Shown here: piece by piece, positions 3,054 through 60,801 of the stretch | Numbering within the stretch: the stretch's first letter is position 1 | Layout of the letters: the number at the start of each line of letters is the position of its first letter | Translations under genes and position numbers: made by a program | IMG/VR virus record: IMGVR_UViG_3300034157_000066 | DNA from: a virus | Taxonomy: Duplodnaviria > Heunggongvirae > Uroviricota > Caudoviricetes | Reading direction: 5' to 3' (one strand) | Length of the DNA stretch: 64,000 bases | Notes under the pieces: generated by a model | What the model saw: the letters and a program-made list of their open reading frames with translations, nothing else | Database searches by the model: none | What the model was told of the DNA's origin: nothing

Positions 3054-4277
3054 ATGATTGATGACATAGAAAAAATTCTAGAAGAATCATCAGAACGGCT
3101 AAATTTAAAGCAGATTAACACTAAAGAACAACCGTGCAAGGCTGATGCTGATAATCAATTTTCTTTTAGTTCGATGGGACTTAATGATAAAATTAAAATA
3201 TATTTAATTGCCCATAAAGATGTTAGTGTTGTCTATGATTTCTTAAAACTGTCACATAAGACAATTAAAAACATCGAAAAAGCTCGAAATTTCATTGCAA
3301 ATATTATTCCAGAAGAAACATCAGTTCAGCATATTATTAACAAAATACAAATTCATACTGATGACAAAATTGAACTCTCTATCATTGGTTGTGGGTGTAC
3401 AAGTTTTAGAGTGCTTCTTCGTGATGGCTTGGTATCATTTTCTATATCACACGTCAGCAATTCATATAGCAAGGAAACCTATAATTTTGAAAACTATGAT
3501 GATTTTGATGATTTAGTTAATACAGCCGTTAATAAAATCATTCCGTCTTTTATTGAAACCATAGGATTTTCATCAGGAGACAAAAACTCACCAGACGTTG
3601 TAGATTTTATTGAAAAAACAGCCGAACAAATGTTTTTTGAAAAAGAGTTAAACCCACTTTTCAATTATATTAAGCCAAATGAGCTGGTTCATTTAGTTTG
3701 TTCTGATTTAAATTTAAATTTGAATGATGTCATGCAGTCATTAAACTACAAAGAAAATGACTCTATGAAAAGTCTTAATATTCCTAATAATTTAACAACT
3801 ATGATATCTTCTATTGCTCAACATCTGGTTAATATTGATGGCATTAAATATAAATTTGATCAACTCATTAGCCTTATCATTCTTTATAATAATATTACTA
3901 ATAAAAAAGAAAAATTTTCAGTTACTTTTTATCCAGTGCAAAAGAAAGATTTCTTTAAAGGTAATTCTTTTAATCGGTCTTACTATGTACTTAATATCAG
4001 TGAAACATTAACAATTTACATTGGTCATAAACTAGGTGATGGTAAAAAAGATGACATAGCTTATTTAGATGATAGTGATGATTTTAAATTGTTCTCATTT
4101 GTTTATTTAAAAGACTTAATGAATTATGACTACTATGAATACTTAACTAACGATATTGATTATGTTTACAATGCTATTTTAACAGATCTTCGGTCTATTA
4201 TTAAAAAGGTTCTCTGCAAAGAGGATGACACTATTAGTTTCCGAGATCTTGAAGTTTATAAAATGGCTGTATTTTAA
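3054..4277 (+). CDS. hypothetical protein (~407 aa), very AT-rich, paralog of 4388..5611
   Basis: Long ORF; TTG at 3039 or ATG at 3054 possible; shares N-term (IYLIAH(K/E)DV...DFL(K/N)LS) and C-term (ND(I/L)DY(V/I)YN(A/V)ILT...(L/I)EV(Y/F)KMA) motifs with next gene. Confidence 0.6.
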   Translation: MIDDIEKILEESSERLNLKQINTKEQPCKADADNQFSFSSMGLNDKIKIYLIAHKDVSVVYDFLKLSHKTIKNIEKARNFIANIIPEETSVQHIINKIQIHTDDKIELSIIGCGCTSFRVLLRDGLVSFSISHVSNSYSKETYNFENYDDFDDLVNTAVNKIIPSFIETIGFSSGDKNSPDVVDFIEKTAEQMFFEKELNPLFNYIKPNELVHLVCSDLNLNLNDVMQSLNYKENDSMKSLNIPNNLTTMISSIAQHLVNIDGIKYKFDQLISLIILYNNITNKKEKFSVTFYPVQKKDFFKGNSFNRSYYVLNISETLTIYIGHKLGDGKKDDIAYLDDSDDFKLFSFVYLKDLMNYDYYEYLTNDIDYVYNAILTDLRSIIKKVLCKEDDTISFRDLEVYKMAVF

Positions 4278-4387: not shown

Positions 4388-5611
4388 ATGAACATTAGTG
4401 AAAAAATCAATGAATTGGAAATCAATATTAAATCATTTATTGCGGAAAATAATCTTCCTGTTTTAATTCCAAATAATAATTATCGCATTTCTTTGGATGG
4501 CGAAAATCAATGCGTTTTTGCTCAGAGTGGTAATTCACATCTTTATTTGATTGCACATGAAGATGTTCAAATCATGGAAGATTTTCTTAACTTAAGCCCT
4601 AATACAGTTAACAAGATAAATAAAATTCGGGCTTTTATTCGTGATATGTATGATGACACCAATAATTTCAAACATAAACGGTTGAAAGTTAAAATTGATC
4701 CAGATCAAAGTGTTGAGTTTTCGATTATCGGCCTTGGACTTGGTGGTCTTAGAATTGAATTAAAAGCCACTGAGCTTGTTGTTTCTTGGATTTATGGCGA
4801 TAACGTTAGCGTCATTTATTCTCTCGATGATGACATTGAACAGAAAGTAAATGAAGCATTGGATCTTGTTATACCAACAATATTAACTAAGCTTGGATTT
4901 TTGAAATGCTCAGAACACTCAGAAGAAGTTATTGATTTTATGAATAAATCTACTGATGATTTAATTGTTGAACATTTTTCAAAATTTGGATTTGATTATA
5001 TTCATCAAAATGAATTGATTGCAAATGCATGTTCATCGACCAAAATTAGTTTGGATGACCTTAACAACTATAATAAAAAAAATGAAAAACCTAATCTTAT
5101 TAAAATACCCCATATGATGATGTCTATTTTACCAAAAATCATGAGTAATATTTCATCAGATATTTCAGTGCATTCAAAATTTAAACAACTCCTTAGTCTT
5201 ATTTATTTTTACGACTATTTAAAACCAACAAACTCAGAAGCTCTCTTGATTTTTAAAGAATATTCAAAATTTGATTTAGCCCCATCAGCTAGTTTTCAAT
5301 CTGGATATTTTACTCTTTTAATGGGTGGTCTTCTTAGACTTGATGTAGGGCACCAATTAAAACCAGATCCAGATGATGAAGAACATCTGTTTGATAGCCC
5401 AAGTGAAAATGGTTATGCCTATATGTTTGAAATTTATCTTTATGATGTAGAAGCACCTGATGCTTTTTACAAATACTTTTGTAATGACCTTGATTATATT
5501 TACAATGTTATATTGACTAAAGTTAGAAACTTAATTAATTCAGCTATCTTAAATGTCGATGAGCCACTTACAGCCAGACAAATTGAAGTTTTTAAAATGG
5601 CGACTGTTTAA
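4388..5611 (+). CDS. hypothetical protein (407 aa), paralog of 3054..4277
   Basis: Promoter gtggTATAAT ~4337-4346, RBS gtgaggcgataATG; paralogy to upstream gene. Confidence 0.65.
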   Translation: MNISEKINELEINIKSFIAENNLPVLIPNNNYRISLDGENQCVFAQSGNSHLYLIAHEDVQIMEDFLNLSPNTVNKINKIRAFIRDMYDDTNNFKHKRLKVKIDPDQSVEFSIIGLGLGGLRIELKATELVVSWIYGDNVSVIYSLDDDIEQKVNEALDLVIPTILTKLGFLKCSEHSEEVIDFMNKSTDDLIVEHFSKFGFDYIHQNELIANACSSTKISLDDLNNYNKKNEKPNLIKIPHMMMSILPKIMSNISSDISVHSKFKQLLSLIYFYDYLKPTNSEALLIFKEYSKFDLAPSASFQSGYFTLLMGGLLRLDVGHQLKPDPDDEEHLFDSPSENGYAYMFEIYLYDVEAPDAFYKYFCNDLDYIYNVILTKVRNLINSAILNVDEPLTARQIEVFKMATV

Positions 5612-12204: not shown

Positions 12205-12336
12205 ATGCAAGGTTCATTTGGTGACGCAACAGAACGTTTCCGTGGTGGCAAAAAACGTGACACAGAAAAAGCAAAAACTCATGAGCAAGACAAAAACTGG
12301 CGAAAGAAGCGTCGTGATCGTCACGTTAACGAATAA
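12205..12336 (+). CDS. small highly basic protein (43 aa), copy 1 of MQGSFGDA.ERFRGGKK family
   Basis: Promoter ttgTATAAT ~12167-12175; MQGSFGDATERFRGGKKRDTEKAKTHEQDKNWRKKRRDRHVNE; paralogs at 53796 and 60667. Confidence 0.65.
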   Translation: MQGSFGDATERFRGGKKRDTEKAKTHEQDKNWRKKRRDRHVNE

Positions 12337-12352
12337 CGAATTTTACAATTTT

Positions 12353-12425
12353 GGCTGTTTGTAGTTCAGTTGGCAGAACTCCGTCGAAAAACGGTAGTCG
12401 TGGGTTCGAATCCCATCATACAGCC
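12353..12425 (+). tRNA. tRNA-like element with canonical D- and T-arms but non-canonical anticodon arm (pseudo-tRNA or unusual tRNA)
   Basis: 73 nt; D-loop AGTTGGCA, T-arm GTGGG-TTCGAAT-CCCAT, acceptor ~6-7 bp with one T.T; anticodon region CCGT-CGAAAA-ACGG gives 4-bp stem + 6-nt loop (or 3 bp + 8 nt); followed by terminator gaccactttcgagtggttttttt. Confidence 0.5.
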
Positions 12426-12620
12426 TTTATACACTAAGACCACTTTCGAGTGGTTTTTTTATTGATTTTTTATATTATGTAATGATAATCATTCTCATTT
12501 TTTTATTGACTTGACTTATTGCTGTGTTACACTATTGAATACTTTTCTATCATTATGATAAAGAATACTAAACGAATATAGATTGCGTTTTTTGCATCTA
12601 GCTATTAGGAGAATTAAATA

Positions 12621-12932
12621 ATGAAAAAGATAATGTTTGCCTGTTTACTGGTCGTCCCATTAACATCTATTGCGGTGATTGCTAATACCACTGATGTCAT
12701 TAAATCCCGAAATGATCAGTTAGCCGAATTGGTTAAAGACTCATTTTACTCTGATGTGTCTCGTTTGAACTTGACGCCCGATCAATACACCACTATTGTT
12801 AGAAAAATCAGGACTACTAATGATGGGCTGACGACTGAAATTAAAGAAGTCCTTGATGATGACCAAAAAGATACATTTGAAACCATTATGGAAGAGAAAA
12901 AAGCATCTATGGGTGATAAAATAGGCTTTTAA
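12621..12932 (+). CDS. secreted small protein with signal peptide (103 aa)
   Basis: RBS ttAGGAGaattaaataATG; MKKIMFACLLVVPLTSIAVIA|NTTD. Confidence 0.65.
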   Translation: MKKIMFACLLVVPLTSIAVIANTTDVIKSRNDQLAELVKDSFYSDVSRLNLTPDQYTTIVRKIRTTNDGLTTEIKEVLDDDQKDTFETIMEEKKASMGDKIGF

Positions 12933-24285: not shown

Positions 24286-24337
24286 ATCTAATTTTTCTGT
24301 TGTATCTAAGCCAAATACTTGGTATAATTAACCCATC

Positions 24338-24379
24338 GAAGCAGCAAGGGGCGAGCAACCCAATAAGCCTTTCCCCTTG
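24338..24379 (+). promoter_or_regulatory. conserved structured 5'-leader motif (copy A) upstream of lipoprotein gene
   Basis: gaagcagcaaggggcgagcaacccaataagcctttccccttg: 7-bp stem caagggg/ccccttg with 22-nt loop; near-identical copy at 53712-53753. Confidence 0.5.
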
Positions 24380-24422
24380 CGATTGCTCATTCGACCTTAA
24401 TTGAAACGAGAAGGATACGACC

Positions 24423-24761
24423 ATGAAAGTAATGAAAATTGTTTTTGCTGCTGTTGCCCTTGTAATGATGACTGGCTGCATGTCAACCTCTCAGTATGGC
24501 TCCTACAAAGAACGTCAAATTGAACGCAAGTGCATCGTGAATGCTGACAAACAAGCTCAAAATGCCTACATTCGCCGTCAAACTGATGTTCGGTTTGCAG
24601 ACTCTCAGAAGGAAGCCATGCGAGCTAACCAAATGTTTCAGAAAAAGATTGCCAGTATTGAAACCAGCAAAGACCGTTGTTTATCCAATGGTCAGCGTCG
24701 GGTCTTTGAAGAACAGCTTCGCCGCACGACTAACCGCATGTATAACCGTAGCTACTACTGA
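24423..24761 (+). CDS. putative lipoprotein (112 aa)
   Basis: MKVMKIVFAAVALVMMTGC lipobox-like; RBS gAAGGATACgaccATG; ~100-nt structured leader from tggTATAAT ~24320. Confidence 0.6.
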   Translation: MKVMKIVFAAVALVMMTGCMSTSQYGSYKERQIERKCIVNADKQAQNAYIRRQTDVRFADSQKEAMRANQMFQKKIASIETSKDRCLSNGQRRVFEEQLRRTTNRMYNRSYY

Positions 24762-24856
24762 CAGTAGACAGCTTAAAAAAAGCCCGCCAAGTGCGGGTTT
24801 TTTGTTTATCTTTTTTAAGTTTTATGGTATAATTTGACAAATTTTGGAGGTTAATC

Positions 24857-27066: not shown

Positions 27067-27189
27067 TTACATCTCCTTGAGGTAAGCACGCTTATCGCGT
27101 TTGTTTTTGTCTTTGCGTTTTTTGTCTACATGAGTAGCCGCCTTATTGACGGTGTTCATGTGTTTCGCTACGAAGTTTTGAATTTGCAT
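27067..27189 (-). CDS. tiny highly basic protein (40 aa) on minus strand, not in ORF track
   Basis: Perfect RBS GAGGTGAtaccATG on minus strand; MQIQNFVAKHMNTVNKAATHVDKKRKDKNKRDKRAYLKEM; ends at bidirectional terminator. Confidence 0.5.
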   Translation of the reverse strand: MQIQNFVAKHMNTVNKAATHVDKKRKDKNKRDKRAYLKEM

Positions 27190-27357
27190 GGTATCACCTC
27201 AATAAGTTTTGTTTGGTTGTTTTGTTTCAGTGGGATTATTATACCAACATTTTAGGATTTTGAAAAGTGTTTTTTGATTTATTTTTTAAAAAAACTCCTT
27301 TTTATCTTGGATGTTCTTTGCTATAATAGCTGAAATCATTAAGTAAAGGGCTTCAAC

Positions 27358-34134: not shown

Positions 34135-35256
34135 ATGTCCAGCATCTTCCCGCGTATTGAAACCCTTGATGATATGCTTCCTCACATCAAAGACCGTGCC
34201 TATATTTCTGTTAATAAACAGGATAACGGTGCCAACATCGTTTGCTATAACATCAGCAACGGCGACTCTTTCAACACTCCGGTTGAAAAGGAAGCTCGCG
34301 GTATTACCTTTGACGACAACGGTAAAATCCTGTCGCGTCCATTGCACAAATTCTTCAACTTGGCAGAGCGTGCAGAAGTCCAACCAGCCGTTTTGGATTG
34401 GAACACGATGGTCGCCGGGTTTGATAAAATGGATGGCTCCATGATTACCACAGGGCTGTTCAACGGCGAATTTTTTGCTAAGTCCAAGAAGTCTTTCAAA
34501 TCGGATGTGGCTGTTTCTGCAGAAAGTTTTGTGTCTCGTAACCAGAAATACTACGAGTTCACCAAATATTGCTCTCAGGCCCAACTGACCCCTATTTTTG
34601 AATTCACTTCGCCAAAACATCGTATCGTTTTGCGTTATGACGAAGACAACATGACACTTCTTCATGTTCGTCACAACATCACAGGCGATTACTTAATGCC
34701 TGCTGACAAAGACCAACTGGCGTTGTTGTTTGATATTCCTGTTAACAAGCCACTGTTTGGTGAAGAATTTGATTTGGCTGCTTTATTGAAGTCGCTGAAC
34801 ACTGTTGAAGGGATTGAAGGCTACGTTATTCAGTTCGTTAACGGTAACATGATCAAAATCAAAACCAAATGGTATATGAACCTCCATCATGCGGTTAGCT
34901 TTGTTCGTGAACGTGATATTGCTCGGTTGGTGGTTGAAGAAAAACTTGATGATTATATCGCTTATTTGTCGCTGAACTCGCCAACGGCTGATTTGAGTGA
35001 GATTTATCGAATCAATGACGCTATCAAAGCTTCGATTGAAGCGTTGTCGAAAGAAGTTGATGATATTGCTGCTGAATTCCAAGGTGTTGATGTGAAAACT
35101 GCAGCAATTCAGCTTAAAGGCCATAAACACTTTGGTTTTGTTATGGGTGCAATTCGTGGTCACAAAAACGACTACCTGTATCACTACTCTAAAAACCATC
35201 TGGTGGATTGGTCGTTGGAACAAATTGAGCTTGGCGACTTGTCAGCTCCGGTTTAA
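34135..35256 (+). CDS. rnlA: RNA ligase 1 family (T4 RnlA-like) paralog A, 373 aa
   Basis: KxDG adenylation motif (FDKMDGSM), RGITFD.NG...RP..KFFNL, EGYV.QF..G...KIKT.WY.NLHH blocks; same length (373-374 aa) as T4 Rnl1; promoter cgaTATAAT ~34096-34104; terminator aagccctgcacttgcggggcttttt ~35270. Confidence 0.8.
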   Translation: MSSIFPRIETLDDMLPHIKDRAYISVNKQDNGANIVCYNISNGDSFNTPVEKEARGITFDDNGKILSRPLHKFFNLAERAEVQPAVLDWNTMVAGFDKMDGSMITTGLFNGEFFAKSKKSFKSDVAVSAESFVSRNQKYYEFTKYCSQAQLTPIFEFTSPKHRIVLRYDEDNMTLLHVRHNITGDYLMPADKDQLALLFDIPVNKPLFGEEFDLAALLKSLNTVEGIEGYVIQFVNGNMIKIKTKWYMNLHHAVSFVRERDIARLVVEEKLDDYIAYLSLNSPTADLSEIYRINDAIKASIEALSKEVDDIAAEFQGVDVKTAAIQLKGHKHFGFVMGAIRGHKNDYLYHYSKNHLVDWSLEQIELGDLSAPV

Positions 35257-36222: not shown

Positions 36223-37344
36223 ATGACTTATCAACAAGAACTGTATGCCCAACTGATGAACCTGTTGGTGACGAATCCGGGGTCGTTCAAATACCGTGAT
36301 GAAACCTCGGCAGTAGACGGCGGGACTTACCGTGTCTTCAACTATGACATTCCAAAGCACTCCGAATTCAAACTTCCGGGTGCTAAGGATTGCCGTGGGG
36401 TCATGTTCTACATGGGCGGTGATGATCCAGTGCTGGTTGCATTGCCTATGCAGAAATTTTTCTCGCTCGGTGAAACCCCAGAGACTCAAAAGATCAAGCC
36501 AGAAGAAGCGGATCATGCTTACTTGAAGCCGGACGGTTCCTTGCTGACCAGCTATATCTCGCCGGTTAACAATACGCTTTACTACAAGAGCAAAAAGAAG
36601 CCAACTTTTGCCGATTATGACCTTGTTGAAAAGTCTATCAGCCCTGAATTGCACGCTGACATTGAACGGTTGACCCGCACAGGTGTTTCTGTTGACTTGG
36701 AATTGACCACGCCCAAAAACCGCGTGTTCATTGAATACACTGATTACGCTGTTCATATCCTAAAAGCCCGTGATATGAGCACTGGTGCTTATGTTGATAT
36801 TCGTTCGGCTGAATTCGCTGCCAAATACCCGGTTATTGCGGCCCATTTGGTGAAACGTATCCCTATCAATGAACTCAACGTCAATGACCCTGAGATTGAG
36901 GGTTATGTGGTTGAATTTGGCACTGACATGTATAAGGTGAAGACAATTCCTTACCTGAAAATGTCGGCAGTTGTCAACATTCAGGATCGGTCGAAGGAAC
37001 GTCAGGTTATTTATGAAGCAACACTTCACGAAATTCTGGATGAAATCCGTTCGTTGTATCACTACCGGACGCACAGCGACAACTTCCCACTGGCTGAAAT
37101 TCTGGCTCGCTTGGATGAAGTAGAAGACTATGCACGTAAAAGCTACCATTACCTTGTTCGCACGGTCGATAGCTTCCACAATGAGCATAAAGGTCTGGAA
37201 CGTGGCGATTACGCTCGTAAAGCCAAAGAAGTGGCTCCATTGCTTCTGTCGGTGTTGATGAGCAAGTTTTCGGGTGATGAGATTGATTACAAACAAGCTG
37301 CTATCATGGTATTTGCTCGTAAACAAGTGCCTATTCCCGAGTAA
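36223..37344 (+). CDS. rnlA: RNA ligase 1 family (T4 RnlA-like) paralog B, 373 aa
   Basis: GGTYRVFNYD...CRGVMF, MQKFFSLGETPE, YLKPDGSLLTSY (KxDG), EGYVVEFGTDMYKVKT, EHKGLERGDYARKAK closely parallel T4 Rnl1 blocks; promoter ttgaTATAAT ~36183-36192; terminator aacggccctagtcttctagggcttttttat ~37353. Confidence 0.85.
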   Translation: MTYQQELYAQLMNLLVTNPGSFKYRDETSAVDGGTYRVFNYDIPKHSEFKLPGAKDCRGVMFYMGGDDPVLVALPMQKFFSLGETPETQKIKPEEADHAYLKPDGSLLTSYISPVNNTLYYKSKKKPTFADYDLVEKSISPELHADIERLTRTGVSVDLELTTPKNRVFIEYTDYAVHILKARDMSTGAYVDIRSAEFAAKYPVIAAHLVKRIPINELNVNDPEIEGYVVEFGTDMYKVKTIPYLKMSAVVNIQDRSKERQVIYEATLHEILDEIRSLYHYRTHSDNFPLAEILARLDEVEDYARKSYHYLVRTVDSFHNEHKGLERGDYARKAKEVAPLLLSVLMSKFSGDEIDYKQAAIMVFARKQVPIPE

Positions 37345-43860: not shown

Positions 43861-43932
43861 AATCCCCTTGTAAATGTGGTTTTTGATTGATATAATTACC
43901 CCACACAAACAGATACCTAAGAGGTTATCAAC

Positions 43933-44292
43933 ATGGCTACTCTTCAACAGTTGAAGAACAAAGAAATGTCCTACAACGAAACCAACAAAGACCAATTTCA
44001 CCGTGCCGGTAAAAAAGCACTGAAAGAACTGGCTGTGAAGCTGAATCTTCCAGCAGGTGGTTTTGAAGTTCGCAGTAACAAAGGTGGCATTGCCGTTTCG
44101 GGTGAAGTCACCCTGCACAGCGAAAGCCTGTATGTTCAAATCTCCGACTCTTCTTCGGGTCGTGGCCTGCAGGTTCTGTTCCGCACTTGCAAAGGTATGA
44201 AAGACTACTCTGGTGGTCAAAACAACTTTGCTGACATCGACCGCTTCGAATCGGAAGCTTTTGTTGAGCAACTGAAAAAAATGGCCGCATAA
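43933..44292 (+). CDS. hypothetical protein (119 aa) with the same conserved leader as the triplicated family
   Basis: Promoter ttgaTATAAT + leader TACCCCACACAAACAGA (43893-43918), RBS ctAAGAGGttatcaacATG; terminator gacccggacttggttccgggttttttat. Confidence 0.65.
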   Translation: MATLQQLKNKEMSYNETNKDQFHRAGKKALKELAVKLNLPAGGFEVRSNKGGIAVSGEVTLHSESLYVQISDSSSGRGLQVLFRTCKGMKDYSGGQNNFADIDRFESEAFVEQLKKMAA

Positions 44293-53199: not shown

Positions 53200-53330
53200 T
53201 AGGAAATTGATATAGCAAGGAATTGAAAGAGCTTGACGTTTTTTCAGTTCTTTGCTAATATCACTCCCGTTAACGTTCTGTAGTCGAATACCTCAAGCTT
53301 TCGTTTAGATTGTCAACTGAGGATACTATT

Positions 53331-53597: not shown

Positions 53598-53711
53598 TAT
53601 TAAGCCCCAGCGATGGGGCTTTTTTGTTTCTAAATTTTATTTTTTTATAGAATTGGTTTTTGATAGAAAAAGCTTGTTTTTGATTTCTGCTTTTGATATA
53701 CTAACCACGTT

Positions 53712-53753
53712 GAAGCAGCAAGAGGCGAGCAAACCAGTAAGTCTTTCCCCTTG
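53712..53753 (+). promoter_or_regulatory. conserved structured 5'-leader motif (copy B) upstream of small basic protein gene
   Basis: gaagcagcaagaggcgagcaaaccagtaagtctttccccttg; ~85% identical to 24338-24379; follows promoter ttgaTATACT. Confidence 0.5.
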
Positions 53754-53795
53754 TTAATGCTTACTCATCATAATCAGTTAAAAAGGATACAAAAC

Positions 53796-53930
53796 ATGCA
53801 AGGTTCTTTCGGTGACGCAGTAGAACGTTTTCGCGGCGGCAAGAAAAAAGACAATGAACAAGCAAAGTTCCACAAAAAAGATAACGAGTTTCGGAATAAA
53901 CGCCGGAATCGTCATCAAGACGCAGAGTAA
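53796..53930 (+). CDS. small highly basic protein (44 aa), copy 2 of MQGSFGDA.ERFRGGKK family
   Basis: RBS aAAGGATACaaaacATG; MQGSFGDAVERFRGGKKKDNEQAKFHKKDNEFRNKRRNRHQDAE; terminator gcaaagcagtagccagtctactgctttcttgc. Confidence 0.65.
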   Translation: MQGSFGDAVERFRGGKKKDNEQAKFHKKDNEFRNKRRNRHQDAE

Positions 53931-60666: not shown

Positions 60667-60801
60667 ATGCAAGGCTCTTTCGGTGACGCAGTAGAACGTT
60701 TTCGCGGTGGCAAGAAAAAAGACAATGAACAAGCGAAGTATCACAAAAAAGATAACGAGTTTCGGAAGCGTCGCCGTAATCGTCATCAAGACGCAGAGTA
60801 A
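60667..60801 (+). CDS. small highly basic protein (44 aa), copy 3 of MQGSFGDA.ERFRGGKK family
   Basis: Promoter cttgaTATACT ~60603-60613, RBS ttAGGAGAtacaaaATG; MQGSFGDAVERFRGGKKKDNEQAKYHKKDNEFRKRRRNRHQDAE; terminator aaggcatccgaaagggtgccttttttg. Confidence 0.65.
   Translation: MQGSFGDAVERFRGGKKKDNEQAKYHKKDNEFRKRRRNRHQDAE

Follow-up and report, generated by a model that had tools for sequence, protein, structure and literature searches.

Why would two unrelated genes of one virus begin with the same stretch of non-coding sequence, and what could that stretch do there? The question is raised by 64,000 nucleotides (hereafter the window) of IMG/VR record IMGVR_UViG_3300034157_000066, a virus of the class Caudoviricetes, in which a 42-nt element stands in front of a gene for a small basic protein and again in front of a lipoprotein gene. 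An initial annotation, made from the letters only, had read this element as a structured cis-acting leader RNA. This reading is backed by 14 covarying versions of the element and by the fact that the element is more conserved than the adjoining coding sequence. The element is very probably a functional structured RNA, as judged by sequence comparison, and it is best filed as a putative new cis-regulatory leader RNA motif, so far from one clade of uncultivated large phage-like genomes.

The repeated element and its two transcription units

A scan of the window with the degenerate 42-mer returned two matches only, at 24338-24379 (copy A) and 53712-53753 (copy B), both on the + strand and both where the initial annotation had placed them; 100 shuffles gave none. 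The two copies are identical at 38 of their 42 positions, for a chance expectation of none, and each core begins 9 nt past an extended -10 box. Copy A lies upstream of the lipoprotein open reading frame (ORF) 24423-24761 and copy B upstream of the 44-aa basic-protein ORF 53796-53930. When the two 2-kb neighbourhoods were compared by blastn, a single significant match was obtained, 24319-24379 against 53693-53753 (62 nt, 84%), which contains the -10 box and the element, while the coding sequences of the two loci are unrelated. The similarity ends before both coding sequences, indicating that the repeat is not part of a larger duplication including coding sequence, the counter-argument that had been named beforehand. 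A covariance-model search of the window with filters off found no third copy, the next best hit (13.5 bits, E 0.5, 53206-53273) being at chance level. The basic-protein paralogs at 12205 and 60667 were correctly described as devoid of the element: their leaders are short, A/C-rich and unrelated to it.

The folded unit exceeds the 42-nt core and spans about 59-60 nt (24336-24394 and 53710-53768). The stem proposed at the outset is present, but it has 8 bp (G/A-CAAGGGG with CCCCTTG-C/T) enclosing 21 nt and not 7 bp with a 22-nt loop, and the lipoprotein leader, said to be of about 100 nt, measures 88 nt from the predicted start (87 nt for copy B). Numbered from that start, the hairpin is made of four helices: P1, pairing +2 to +5 with +57 to +60; P2, of 3 bp; P3, the 8-bp stem; and P4, of 4 bp with a 10-nt loop. 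The parts of the lipoprotein unit are the following.

24320-24328, + strand: extended -10 box TGGTATAAT, from the sequence, with a weak -35-like TTGTAT 17 nt upstream of the TATAAT hexamer
24335, + strand: predicted transcription start (A) of copy A, 7th nt past the -10 hexamer, from promoter geometry
24336-24394, + strand: leader hairpin copy A; single-sequence fold -22.2 kcal/mol, covariance model 88.8 bits
24338-24379, + strand: 42-nt core element, copy A, from the sequence and the pattern scan
24336-24339 with 24391-24394, + strand: helix P1
24341-24343 with 24384-24386, + strand: helix P2
24344-24351 with 24373-24380, + strand: helix P3
24353-24356 with 24367 and 24369-24371, + strand: helix P4
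24357-24366, + strand: apical loop
24352-24372, + strand: apical module C-GAGCA-N4-A-N-UAAG-Y-CUUU (alignment columns 18-38), candidate recognition site of a trans-acting factor
24411-24415, + strand: Shine-Dalgarno sequence AAGGA of the lipoprotein gene, 16 nt past the hairpin end, predicted unpaired probability 0.46
24423-24761, + strand: lipoprotein ORF, 112 aa, with signal peptide and lipobox ...MMTGC and a weak LPAM_1 match
24777-24803, + strand: intrinsic terminator of the monocistronic lipoprotein unit; the next promoter starts from 24825

The basic-protein unit is built in the same order.

53602-53621, + strand: intrinsic terminator of the gene upstream, isolating the copy B unit
53694-53702, + strand: extended -10 box TGATATACT, with a -35-like TTGTTT 17 nt upstream of the TATACT hexamer
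53709, + strand: predicted transcription start (G) of copy B, 7th nt past the -10 hexamer, with the same 6-nt spacing as copy A
53710-53768, + strand: leader hairpin copy B; covariance model 81.9 bits, single-sequence fold -12.3 kcal/mol
53712-53753, + strand: 42-nt core element, copy B, from the sequence and the pattern scan
53711-53713 with 53765-53767, + strand: helix P1 (3 bp)
53715-53717 with 53758-53760, + strand: helix P2
53718-53725 with 53747-53754, + strand: helix P3, with an A.C mismatch at 53723/53749
53726-53746, + strand: helix P4 and apical module
53783-53787, + strand: Shine-Dalgarno sequence AAGGA of the basic-protein gene, predicted unpaired probability 0.75
53796-53930, + strand: small basic protein ORF, 44 aa, MQGSFGDA...KRRNRHQDAE, paralog 2 of 3 in the window

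The promoter of the lipoprotein unit is missed by a simple TTGACA/TATAAT scan because its -35 is weak. The fold of copy B taken as a single sequence is itself weak because of the A.C mismatch at the fifth pair of P3 (CAAGAGG); a near-identical metagenomic twin (L001) has a G at this position and folds at -19.2 kcal/mol. The distance from the -10 hexamer to the first column of our alignment is exactly 6 nt in all 14 variants and, with the start site set by promoter geometry, the hairpin is predicted to sit at the 5' terminus of the transcript.

Covariation, selection and gene contexts among relatives

Variants of the element were collected from protein look-ups of lipoprotein and basic-protein homologs and from pattern scans of one metagenome and of IMG/VR, and a covariance model was built from the first 11 of them. 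The first two exact patterns had no match in IMG/VR and later pattern scans of this database gave versions; a search for relatives in IMG/VR with the lipoprotein as query gave none that could be confirmed. This led to 14 distinct versions in four gene contexts on metagenomic and IMG/VR contigs, all from one clade and with a few kilobases read per relative. In the alignment (A4), column 1 is the 7th nt past the -10 hexamer, almost no gap is needed, and the structure is:

.((((.(((((((((((.((((..........).))).))))))))...)))....))))......

The initial annotation had named further instances devoid of covariation as evidence against it; the added instances covary, the 14 versions keeping the hairpin by compensatory changes. 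Standard pairs occupy 95.9% of the paired cells of A4, as compared with 38.5-48.9% when the 3' partners are slid by 1-3 columns, and both sides of a pair have changed at six pairs (13 cells). None of 500 shuffles matched the observed paired fraction, the double-change counts or the covariation score. The 8-bp stem illustrates this pattern: CAAGGGG/CCCCTTG becomes CAAGAAG/CTTCTTG in L015, CAATGAG/CTCATTG in L026, CAATGGT/ACCATTG in L027 and CAAGGGA/TCCCTTG in L004, and its closing pair (columns 10-46) is G-C, A-U or G-U, the last in 7 of the 14 sequences. P2-P4 were predicted independently by RNAalifold on alignment A3 and were recovered in 12-13 of the 14 variants by single-sequence folds. P1 was first seen in full-leader folds and then tested for covariation; it covaries as well: a C-G pair of the lipoprotein-type leaders is U-A in the basic-type ones, and L017 and L027 have A-U in place of G-C. 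Of the paired cells, about 10% are G-U, including the invariant G19-U37, and such pairs would be C.A mismatches on the other strand, indicating that the pairing belongs to the sense RNA and not to a symmetric DNA site or an antisense RNA. Taken together, these sequence patterns indicate that the hairpin fold is kept by selection on the sense strand.

The comparison with coding sequence points in the same direction. Across the lipoprotein orthologs, the hairpin is 75-88% identical to copy A and the apical module 76-95%, for 45-71% at the four-fold degenerate sites of the gene; in the most distant ortholog (49% amino acid identity, four-fold sites 45%), the hairpin is still 75% and the apical module 86% identical. 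The element is thus under purifying selection. Conservation is sharpest at the apex, with 15 of the 21 positions of the apical module (columns 18-38) invariant in the 14 variants and C18 nearly so, in contrast with P3, where 5 of the 8 pairs vary. A stem that covaries below an apex that does not change usually points to a ligand that reads the sequence, and this ligand is in most cases a protein.

A leader peptide or overlapping ORF was considered and rejected: the leaders hold no start codon past the predicted transcription start, and the substitutions are pairwise-compensatory and not codon-periodic. As a separate observation, the 5' GCAGCA of the element in lipoprotein leaders (24341-24346) is complementary to a UGCUGC in the signal-peptide codons (~24446-24452), and this long-range pairing is predicted in two variants (L002 being the other) when the folds include the first 30 coding nt; it is probably coincidental.

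Which genes carry the element? The lipoprotein gene follows it in 9 of the 14 versions, including L027 on a 290-kb IMG/VR contig where the lipoprotein is 49% identical, and all the lipoprotein orthologs (P0001-P0009 and L027) have it upstream. Orthologs of basic-protein paralog 2 account for three versions (the window, L001 and L019), a 182-aa ORF with no homolog in the window for one (L021/L022), and a membrane-protein ORF for one (L026, on the same 290-kb contig as L027). The lipoprotein association is ancestral and the other gene contexts are lineage-specific. A special link between the element and the basic protein, implied by the initial annotation, is likewise lineage-specific, none of the four basic-protein genes of the 290-kb relative having the element. 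Over 49 columns, the basic-protein copies differ least (at 4-7 positions) from lipoprotein copies of their own sub-clade, which suggests a copy event. Concerted evolution within genomes was rejected as a rule, since it fits the sub-clade of the window and fails for L026 against L027 (11 differing positions).

Pattern matches are few per contig: one in a 1.86-Mb contig and two in the 290-kb contig, alongside the two copies in the window. Two patterns searched against 185,579 GTDB species genomes gave no copy, so a host-derived origin of the element is not supported, and the element looks specific to one phage-like clade of uncultivated large genomes. Element-bearing genomes encode the basic protein too, and the basic-protein family is present on IMG/VR contigs where the element was not found. 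Searches of PHROGs, Pfam, NCBIfam and PDB for the function of the partner proteins gave sub-threshold matches only, and the 44-aa basic protein had no match in Pfam, PHROG, NCBIfam or PDB. Residues M1-S4, D7, A8, E10, F12, G15, K16, D19, R33, R36, R37, R39 and H40 of this protein are invariant, and it has an invariant RRxRH motif.

The basic protein is multi-copy, with three genes in the window (12205-12336, 53796-53930 and 60667-60801) and four on the 290-kb IMG/VR contig (L031-L034). Some gene callers lengthen the copy-3-type genes to 74 aa by reading through promoter and leader. Directly after paralog 1 lies a tRNA-like gene (12355-12425; Rfam tRNA, 44 bits), to which ARAGORN assigns no anticodon ('tRNA-???', anticodon 'aa').

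Proteins of this region also occur, syntenic with the window, on megabase contigs (1.84-1.92 Mb) of at least five records, which come from several sources (JGI, ENA, Logan). These include L003 (ERZ27281805 k141_522346, 1,843,594 bp), L013 (Ga0308158_10000001, 1,859,102 bp), P0001/P0010 (1,917,244), P0012/P0030 (1,851,360) and P0006 (1,858,324). The same lineage is found as IMG/VR viral contigs of 64-290 kb. According to recent reviews, the largest phage genomes are just over 700 kb, with none above 1 Mb (PMC13359090, PMC13598248), and the megabase contigs may be a cellular chromosome carrying the region, a giant phage-like replicon, or misassemblies.

Candidate functions of the leader hairpin

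The function that we infer is that of a cis-acting post-transcriptional leader that would both protect the 5' end and dock a trans-acting factor co-regulating the lipoprotein gene and a lineage-specific partner, and we see this combined reading as evenly poised between right and wrong. The element would act after transcription, in cis, at the extreme 5' end of the two mRNAs. Its lower helices would sequester the mRNA 5' terminus, and a sequestered 5' end would slow the 5'-end-dependent decay (RppH, RNase E) of Proteobacteria and lengthen the life of the mRNA. The apical module would be the docking site of the factor, most plausibly a phage-encoded RNA-binding protein, which would co-regulate the leader-bearing genes, the lipoprotein gene always and one lineage-specific extra. 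In one clade, the same module is placed before at least four unrelated genes. Messages whose 5' terminus is base-paired are protected from 5'-end-dependent decay, according to PMC3997798 (with citation of Bouvet & Belasco 1992 and Arnold et al. 1998): RppH acts on 5' nucleotides only if they are unpaired, and pairing at the 5' terminus hinders RNase E. Counted from the predicted start, P1 would pair +2 to +5 in the lipoprotein-type leaders and in L026.

Several points weigh against this combined reading. P1 is weak or only 3 bp long in the basic-protein, 182-aa ORF and L027 versions, which are modelled with an unpaired 5' tail of 4-6 nt that may be too long for protection. The transcription start is itself predicted from promoter geometry alone. 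A pure stabiliser would need no invariant apex, and the docking factor is hypothetical. An uncompensated A.C mismatch is found in P3, in two variants only (window copy B and L002/L003), and the invariance of P4 leaves its pairing to prediction. Finally, the instances come from a single clade, whose relatedness inflates the shuffle statistics, although the control with slid partners and the diversity of compensatory pairs argue against relatedness as the whole explanation.

The hairpin could instead be a passive 5'-terminal stabiliser of the ompA kind, with no trans-acting factor and an apex kept by folding or tertiary constraints. Its fixed position relative to the promoter, the covariation of the 5'-terminal P1, its separation from a ribosome binding site that is not consistently occluded, and the unrelatedness of the partner genes would all fit. 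A generic apex would be expected to drift, however, and 15 of 21 apical positions are invariant while 5 of 8 P3 pairs have changed and four-fold sites are near saturation; the single-stranded 5' tail of 4-6 nt predicted in several variants does not fit either. We therefore regard the passive stabiliser as rather unlikely.

A bolder proposal names the binder. Here the hairpin would be the RNA operator of a phage-specific regulon, read by the multi-copy 44-aa Arg-rich protein in a lambda N/boxB-like or Rev/RRE-like manner, which would time or boost the lipoprotein gene and a few lineage-specific genes in a lineage that has contigs of 1.84-1.92 Mb. This is a tentative idea, and a distinctly improbable one.

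The same protein could also serve in antitermination, if the hairpin were a lambda N/nut-like or HK022 put-like signal, possibly bound by the 44-aa protein, giving read-through of downstream terminators. Most genes of this genome are followed by terminators, the basic protein has its invariant RRxRH, and genomes bearing the element encode this protein. At copy B, the order of promoter, hairpin and small Arg-rich gene resembles lambda pL-nutL-N, with a second site on another unit. In lambda, a nut site combines a boxA (CGCTCTTA-like) with a boxB after it, whose 5-bp stem carries a 5-nt GNRA-like loop. Neither leader here holds a boxA-like sequence, and an 8-bp stem enclosing 21 nt is unlike boxB. 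Moreover, the lipoprotein unit is monocistronic, with a strong terminator and then the own promoter of the next gene, leaving no obvious use for read-through. The basic-protein association is not conserved either: all four basic-protein genes of the 290-kb relative stand without the element, and the family occurs on IMG/VR contigs where the element was not found. Antitermination is thus very unlikely.

The initial annotation had listed a translational operator, an RNA thermometer, a riboswitch-like element and a small RNA target, and a conserved structured leader with conserved unpaired sequence is indeed what a riboswitch, a thermometer or the target of a trans-encoded small RNA would show. 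A thermometer or direct translational operator fits poorly with a hairpin that ends 15-45 nt before the Shine-Dalgarno sequence, which is not consistently sequestered: over the 14 leaders, its predicted unpaired probability is 0.33-0.76 and it has no consistent partner. A CCUU...AAGG mini-hairpin, predicted in some lipoprotein leaders, was examined as a means of sequestration and rejected as inconsistent across variants. Against a riboswitch stand a single hairpin with a variable loop centre and a hairpin-to-Shine-Dalgarno sequence that differs between contexts, and thus no shared expression platform. No Rfam family corresponds to it: Rfam 15 over the whole window at gathering thresholds returned three tRNAs only, and the leader 24300-24440 with E up to 10 gave two nonsense matches of 12.5 and 8.7 bits for thresholds of 40 and 50. 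As for a small RNA, complements of the apical loop in the 64-kb window, the sole sequence searched, are no longer than chance 9-10-mers, so that no complementary partner was found there. Even taken together, we give these mechanisms little credence, about as little as antitermination.

The element could also be a DNA module akin to the PeSLs, cassettes of promoter plus stem-loop that shuffle ORFans by recombination, in which case the hairpin RNA would at most attenuate upstream transcription. The GGGG...CCCC character of the stem has also been described for PeSLs (PMC2839356), and the element travels with a sigma70-like promoter before four unrelated ORFan-type genes in a hyperplastic-looking region. 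The closeness of the basic-protein copies to lipoprotein copies of their sub-clade, suggesting a copy event, would fit as well. However, the whole hairpin comes after the predicted start and not between or over -35 and -10, it is not a terminator, as it lacks a U-tract and the terminator scan made no call, and it occurs in 1-2 copies per genome and not in dozens. Homology begins past the promoter, at about +4, the two promoters being different; the G-U pairs and the strand asymmetry point to RNA pairing; and a recombination patch would not be expected to keep an unpaired loop sequence under purifying selection over the long term. As the function of the element a PeSL-type cassette is thus highly doubtful, and PeSL-like recombination may be the route by which the module was copied between genes.

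Equally doubtful is an endoribonuclease processing site, cut by host RNase III or a phage nuclease so as to alter translation or stability: the irregular ~19-bp hairpin with internal loops in a leader would suit it, and phage T7 early R sites and the lambda N leader are precedents, but neither the fixed 6-nt distance to the -10 box nor a paired 5' terminus would be required, and RNase III ignores apical loop sequence, which is here the most conserved part.

Genome setting and known systems

The window has 38% G+C and is densely packed with small + strand ORFs, of which only about 10 of 85 carry Pfam domains (two T4-type RNA ligases, HNH, NUDIX, RNase T, pentapeptide and others) and several more match PHROGs. 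Among 50,697 deposited phage records, no close relative of the window was found by megablast with both neighbourhoods or by tblastn with a 407-aa ORF; the best match of a window RNA ligase in reference phages is 42%, in the Ralstonia jumbo phage RsoM2USA. The extended -10 box TGnTAYAMT occurs 57 times on the + strand, as compared with 10 on the - strand, and stands upstream of nearly every + strand gene. Leaders of the 48 predicted promoter-to-gene units are mostly short (median 26 nt, minimum free energy near 0), and the two leaders bearing the element (88 and 87 nt) are the longest and most structured. The element is thus a folded RNA of about 60 nt added onto an otherwise minimal leader design.

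Other features of the window were recorded on the way. Most promoters carry a TTGTTT-like -35, many genes are followed by an intrinsic terminator, and nearly every small ORF resembles its own transcription unit. The third-longest predicted leader (12525-12621, 81 nt, minimum free energy -8.6 kcal/mol) bears no sequence relationship to the element. Repetition is also seen in a second type of leader, TATAAT-taccc(c/t)acacaaacagag(a/g)(c/t)ggagttaca..ATG, at 1449-1500, 1942-1995, 2512-2560 and 43888-43940; it fronts three tandem paralogous ORFs (starting MTTS/MNTS...) and, having diverged, the gene at 43933. On the - strand, a 40-aa lysine-rich ORF (27067-27189, promoter box at 27246, - strand; Pfam DUF7230 in relatives) is a rare - strand unit of the region and keeps its position in all the relatives examined (L002-L018). 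Two T4 Rnl1-type RNA ligase paralogs of 373 aa each lie about 1 kb apart (34135-35256 and 36223-37344), and two 407-aa ORFs with no family matches adjoin each other (3054-4277 and 4388-5611).

A structured 5' leader is in itself unsurprising, and were the element only a generic protective hairpin, it would enlarge a known class only modestly. Hardly any structured cis-regulatory RNAs have been charted in large uncultivated phages, and this element combines clear covariation support from only 14 sequences with a defined 5'-end position and a sharply conserved apical motif. In a genome where almost all genes are ORFans behind minimal 26-nt leaders, it would mark a small co-regulated set, the lipoprotein gene and its lineage-specific partners, offering a foothold for the infection programme of this lineage. 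It could be used as a new Rfam-type family, as a bait for the binding factor, and as a portable 5' untranslated region module for tests of mRNA stabilisation.

How does it compare with known RNA and DNA elements? The PeSL cassettes of T4-type phages (Arbiol et al. 2010, PMC2839356; Comeau et al. 2014, PMC4122927) likewise couple an early sigma70-type promoter to an intergenic stem-loop with a G-run and a C-run in ORFan-rich regions, and place the same module before unrelated genes. PeSL stem-loops lie between or over the -35 and -10 boxes (PMC2839356), are terminators present in dozens of copies and were proposed as DNA recombination sites, whereas the element is at a transcribed 5' end, has no U-tract, is present in 1-2 copies and shows G-U covariation. 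Three of the four testable PeSL features fail. Coupling of promoter and stem-loop is present, the hairpin standing 6 nt past the -10 in 14 of 14 variants; a stem-loop at -35/-10 acting as terminator and tens of copies are absent.

The RNase III hairpins (T7 R0.3, lambda N leader) share with the element an irregular shape of about 50-60 nt with internal loops and a place in a phage early leader, but they lack a fixed position relative to the transcript start and a conserved loop, both of which the element has; its cleavage would be hypothetical.

The operator hairpins (lambda boxB/N, the MS2/PP7 coat-protein and T4 gp43 operators, the iron-responsive element) resemble it more in design: in them, too, a lower stem that covaries supports an apical stem and loop that do not change, and several mRNAs that bear one hairpin make up a small regulon. 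They measure 15-20 nt in total, as opposed to an 8-bp stem enclosing 21 nt here; the element comes with no boxA and its binder is hypothetical. Unlike the MS2 and gp43 operators, the element stays clear of the ribosome binding site.

The hairpin of the E. coli ompA 5' untranslated region is likewise at the extreme 5' end of an envelope-protein mRNA and apart from the ribosome binding site. Stabilisers of this type (Bouvet & Belasco 1992; Arnold, Yu & Belasco 1998, as cited in PMC3997798) are portable between genes and have paired 5' nucleotides, as the lipoprotein-type leaders and L026 would have if transcription begins at the predicted start. The element differs from the ompA hairpin in its near-invariant apex, in being phage-borne and clade-specific, and in having no sequence similarity to it, and stabilisation would here be by analogy. 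Taken together, these comparisons make the element most like the ompA-type 5'-terminal protective hairpins combined with hairpins of the operator type (boxB, MS2, iron-responsive element).

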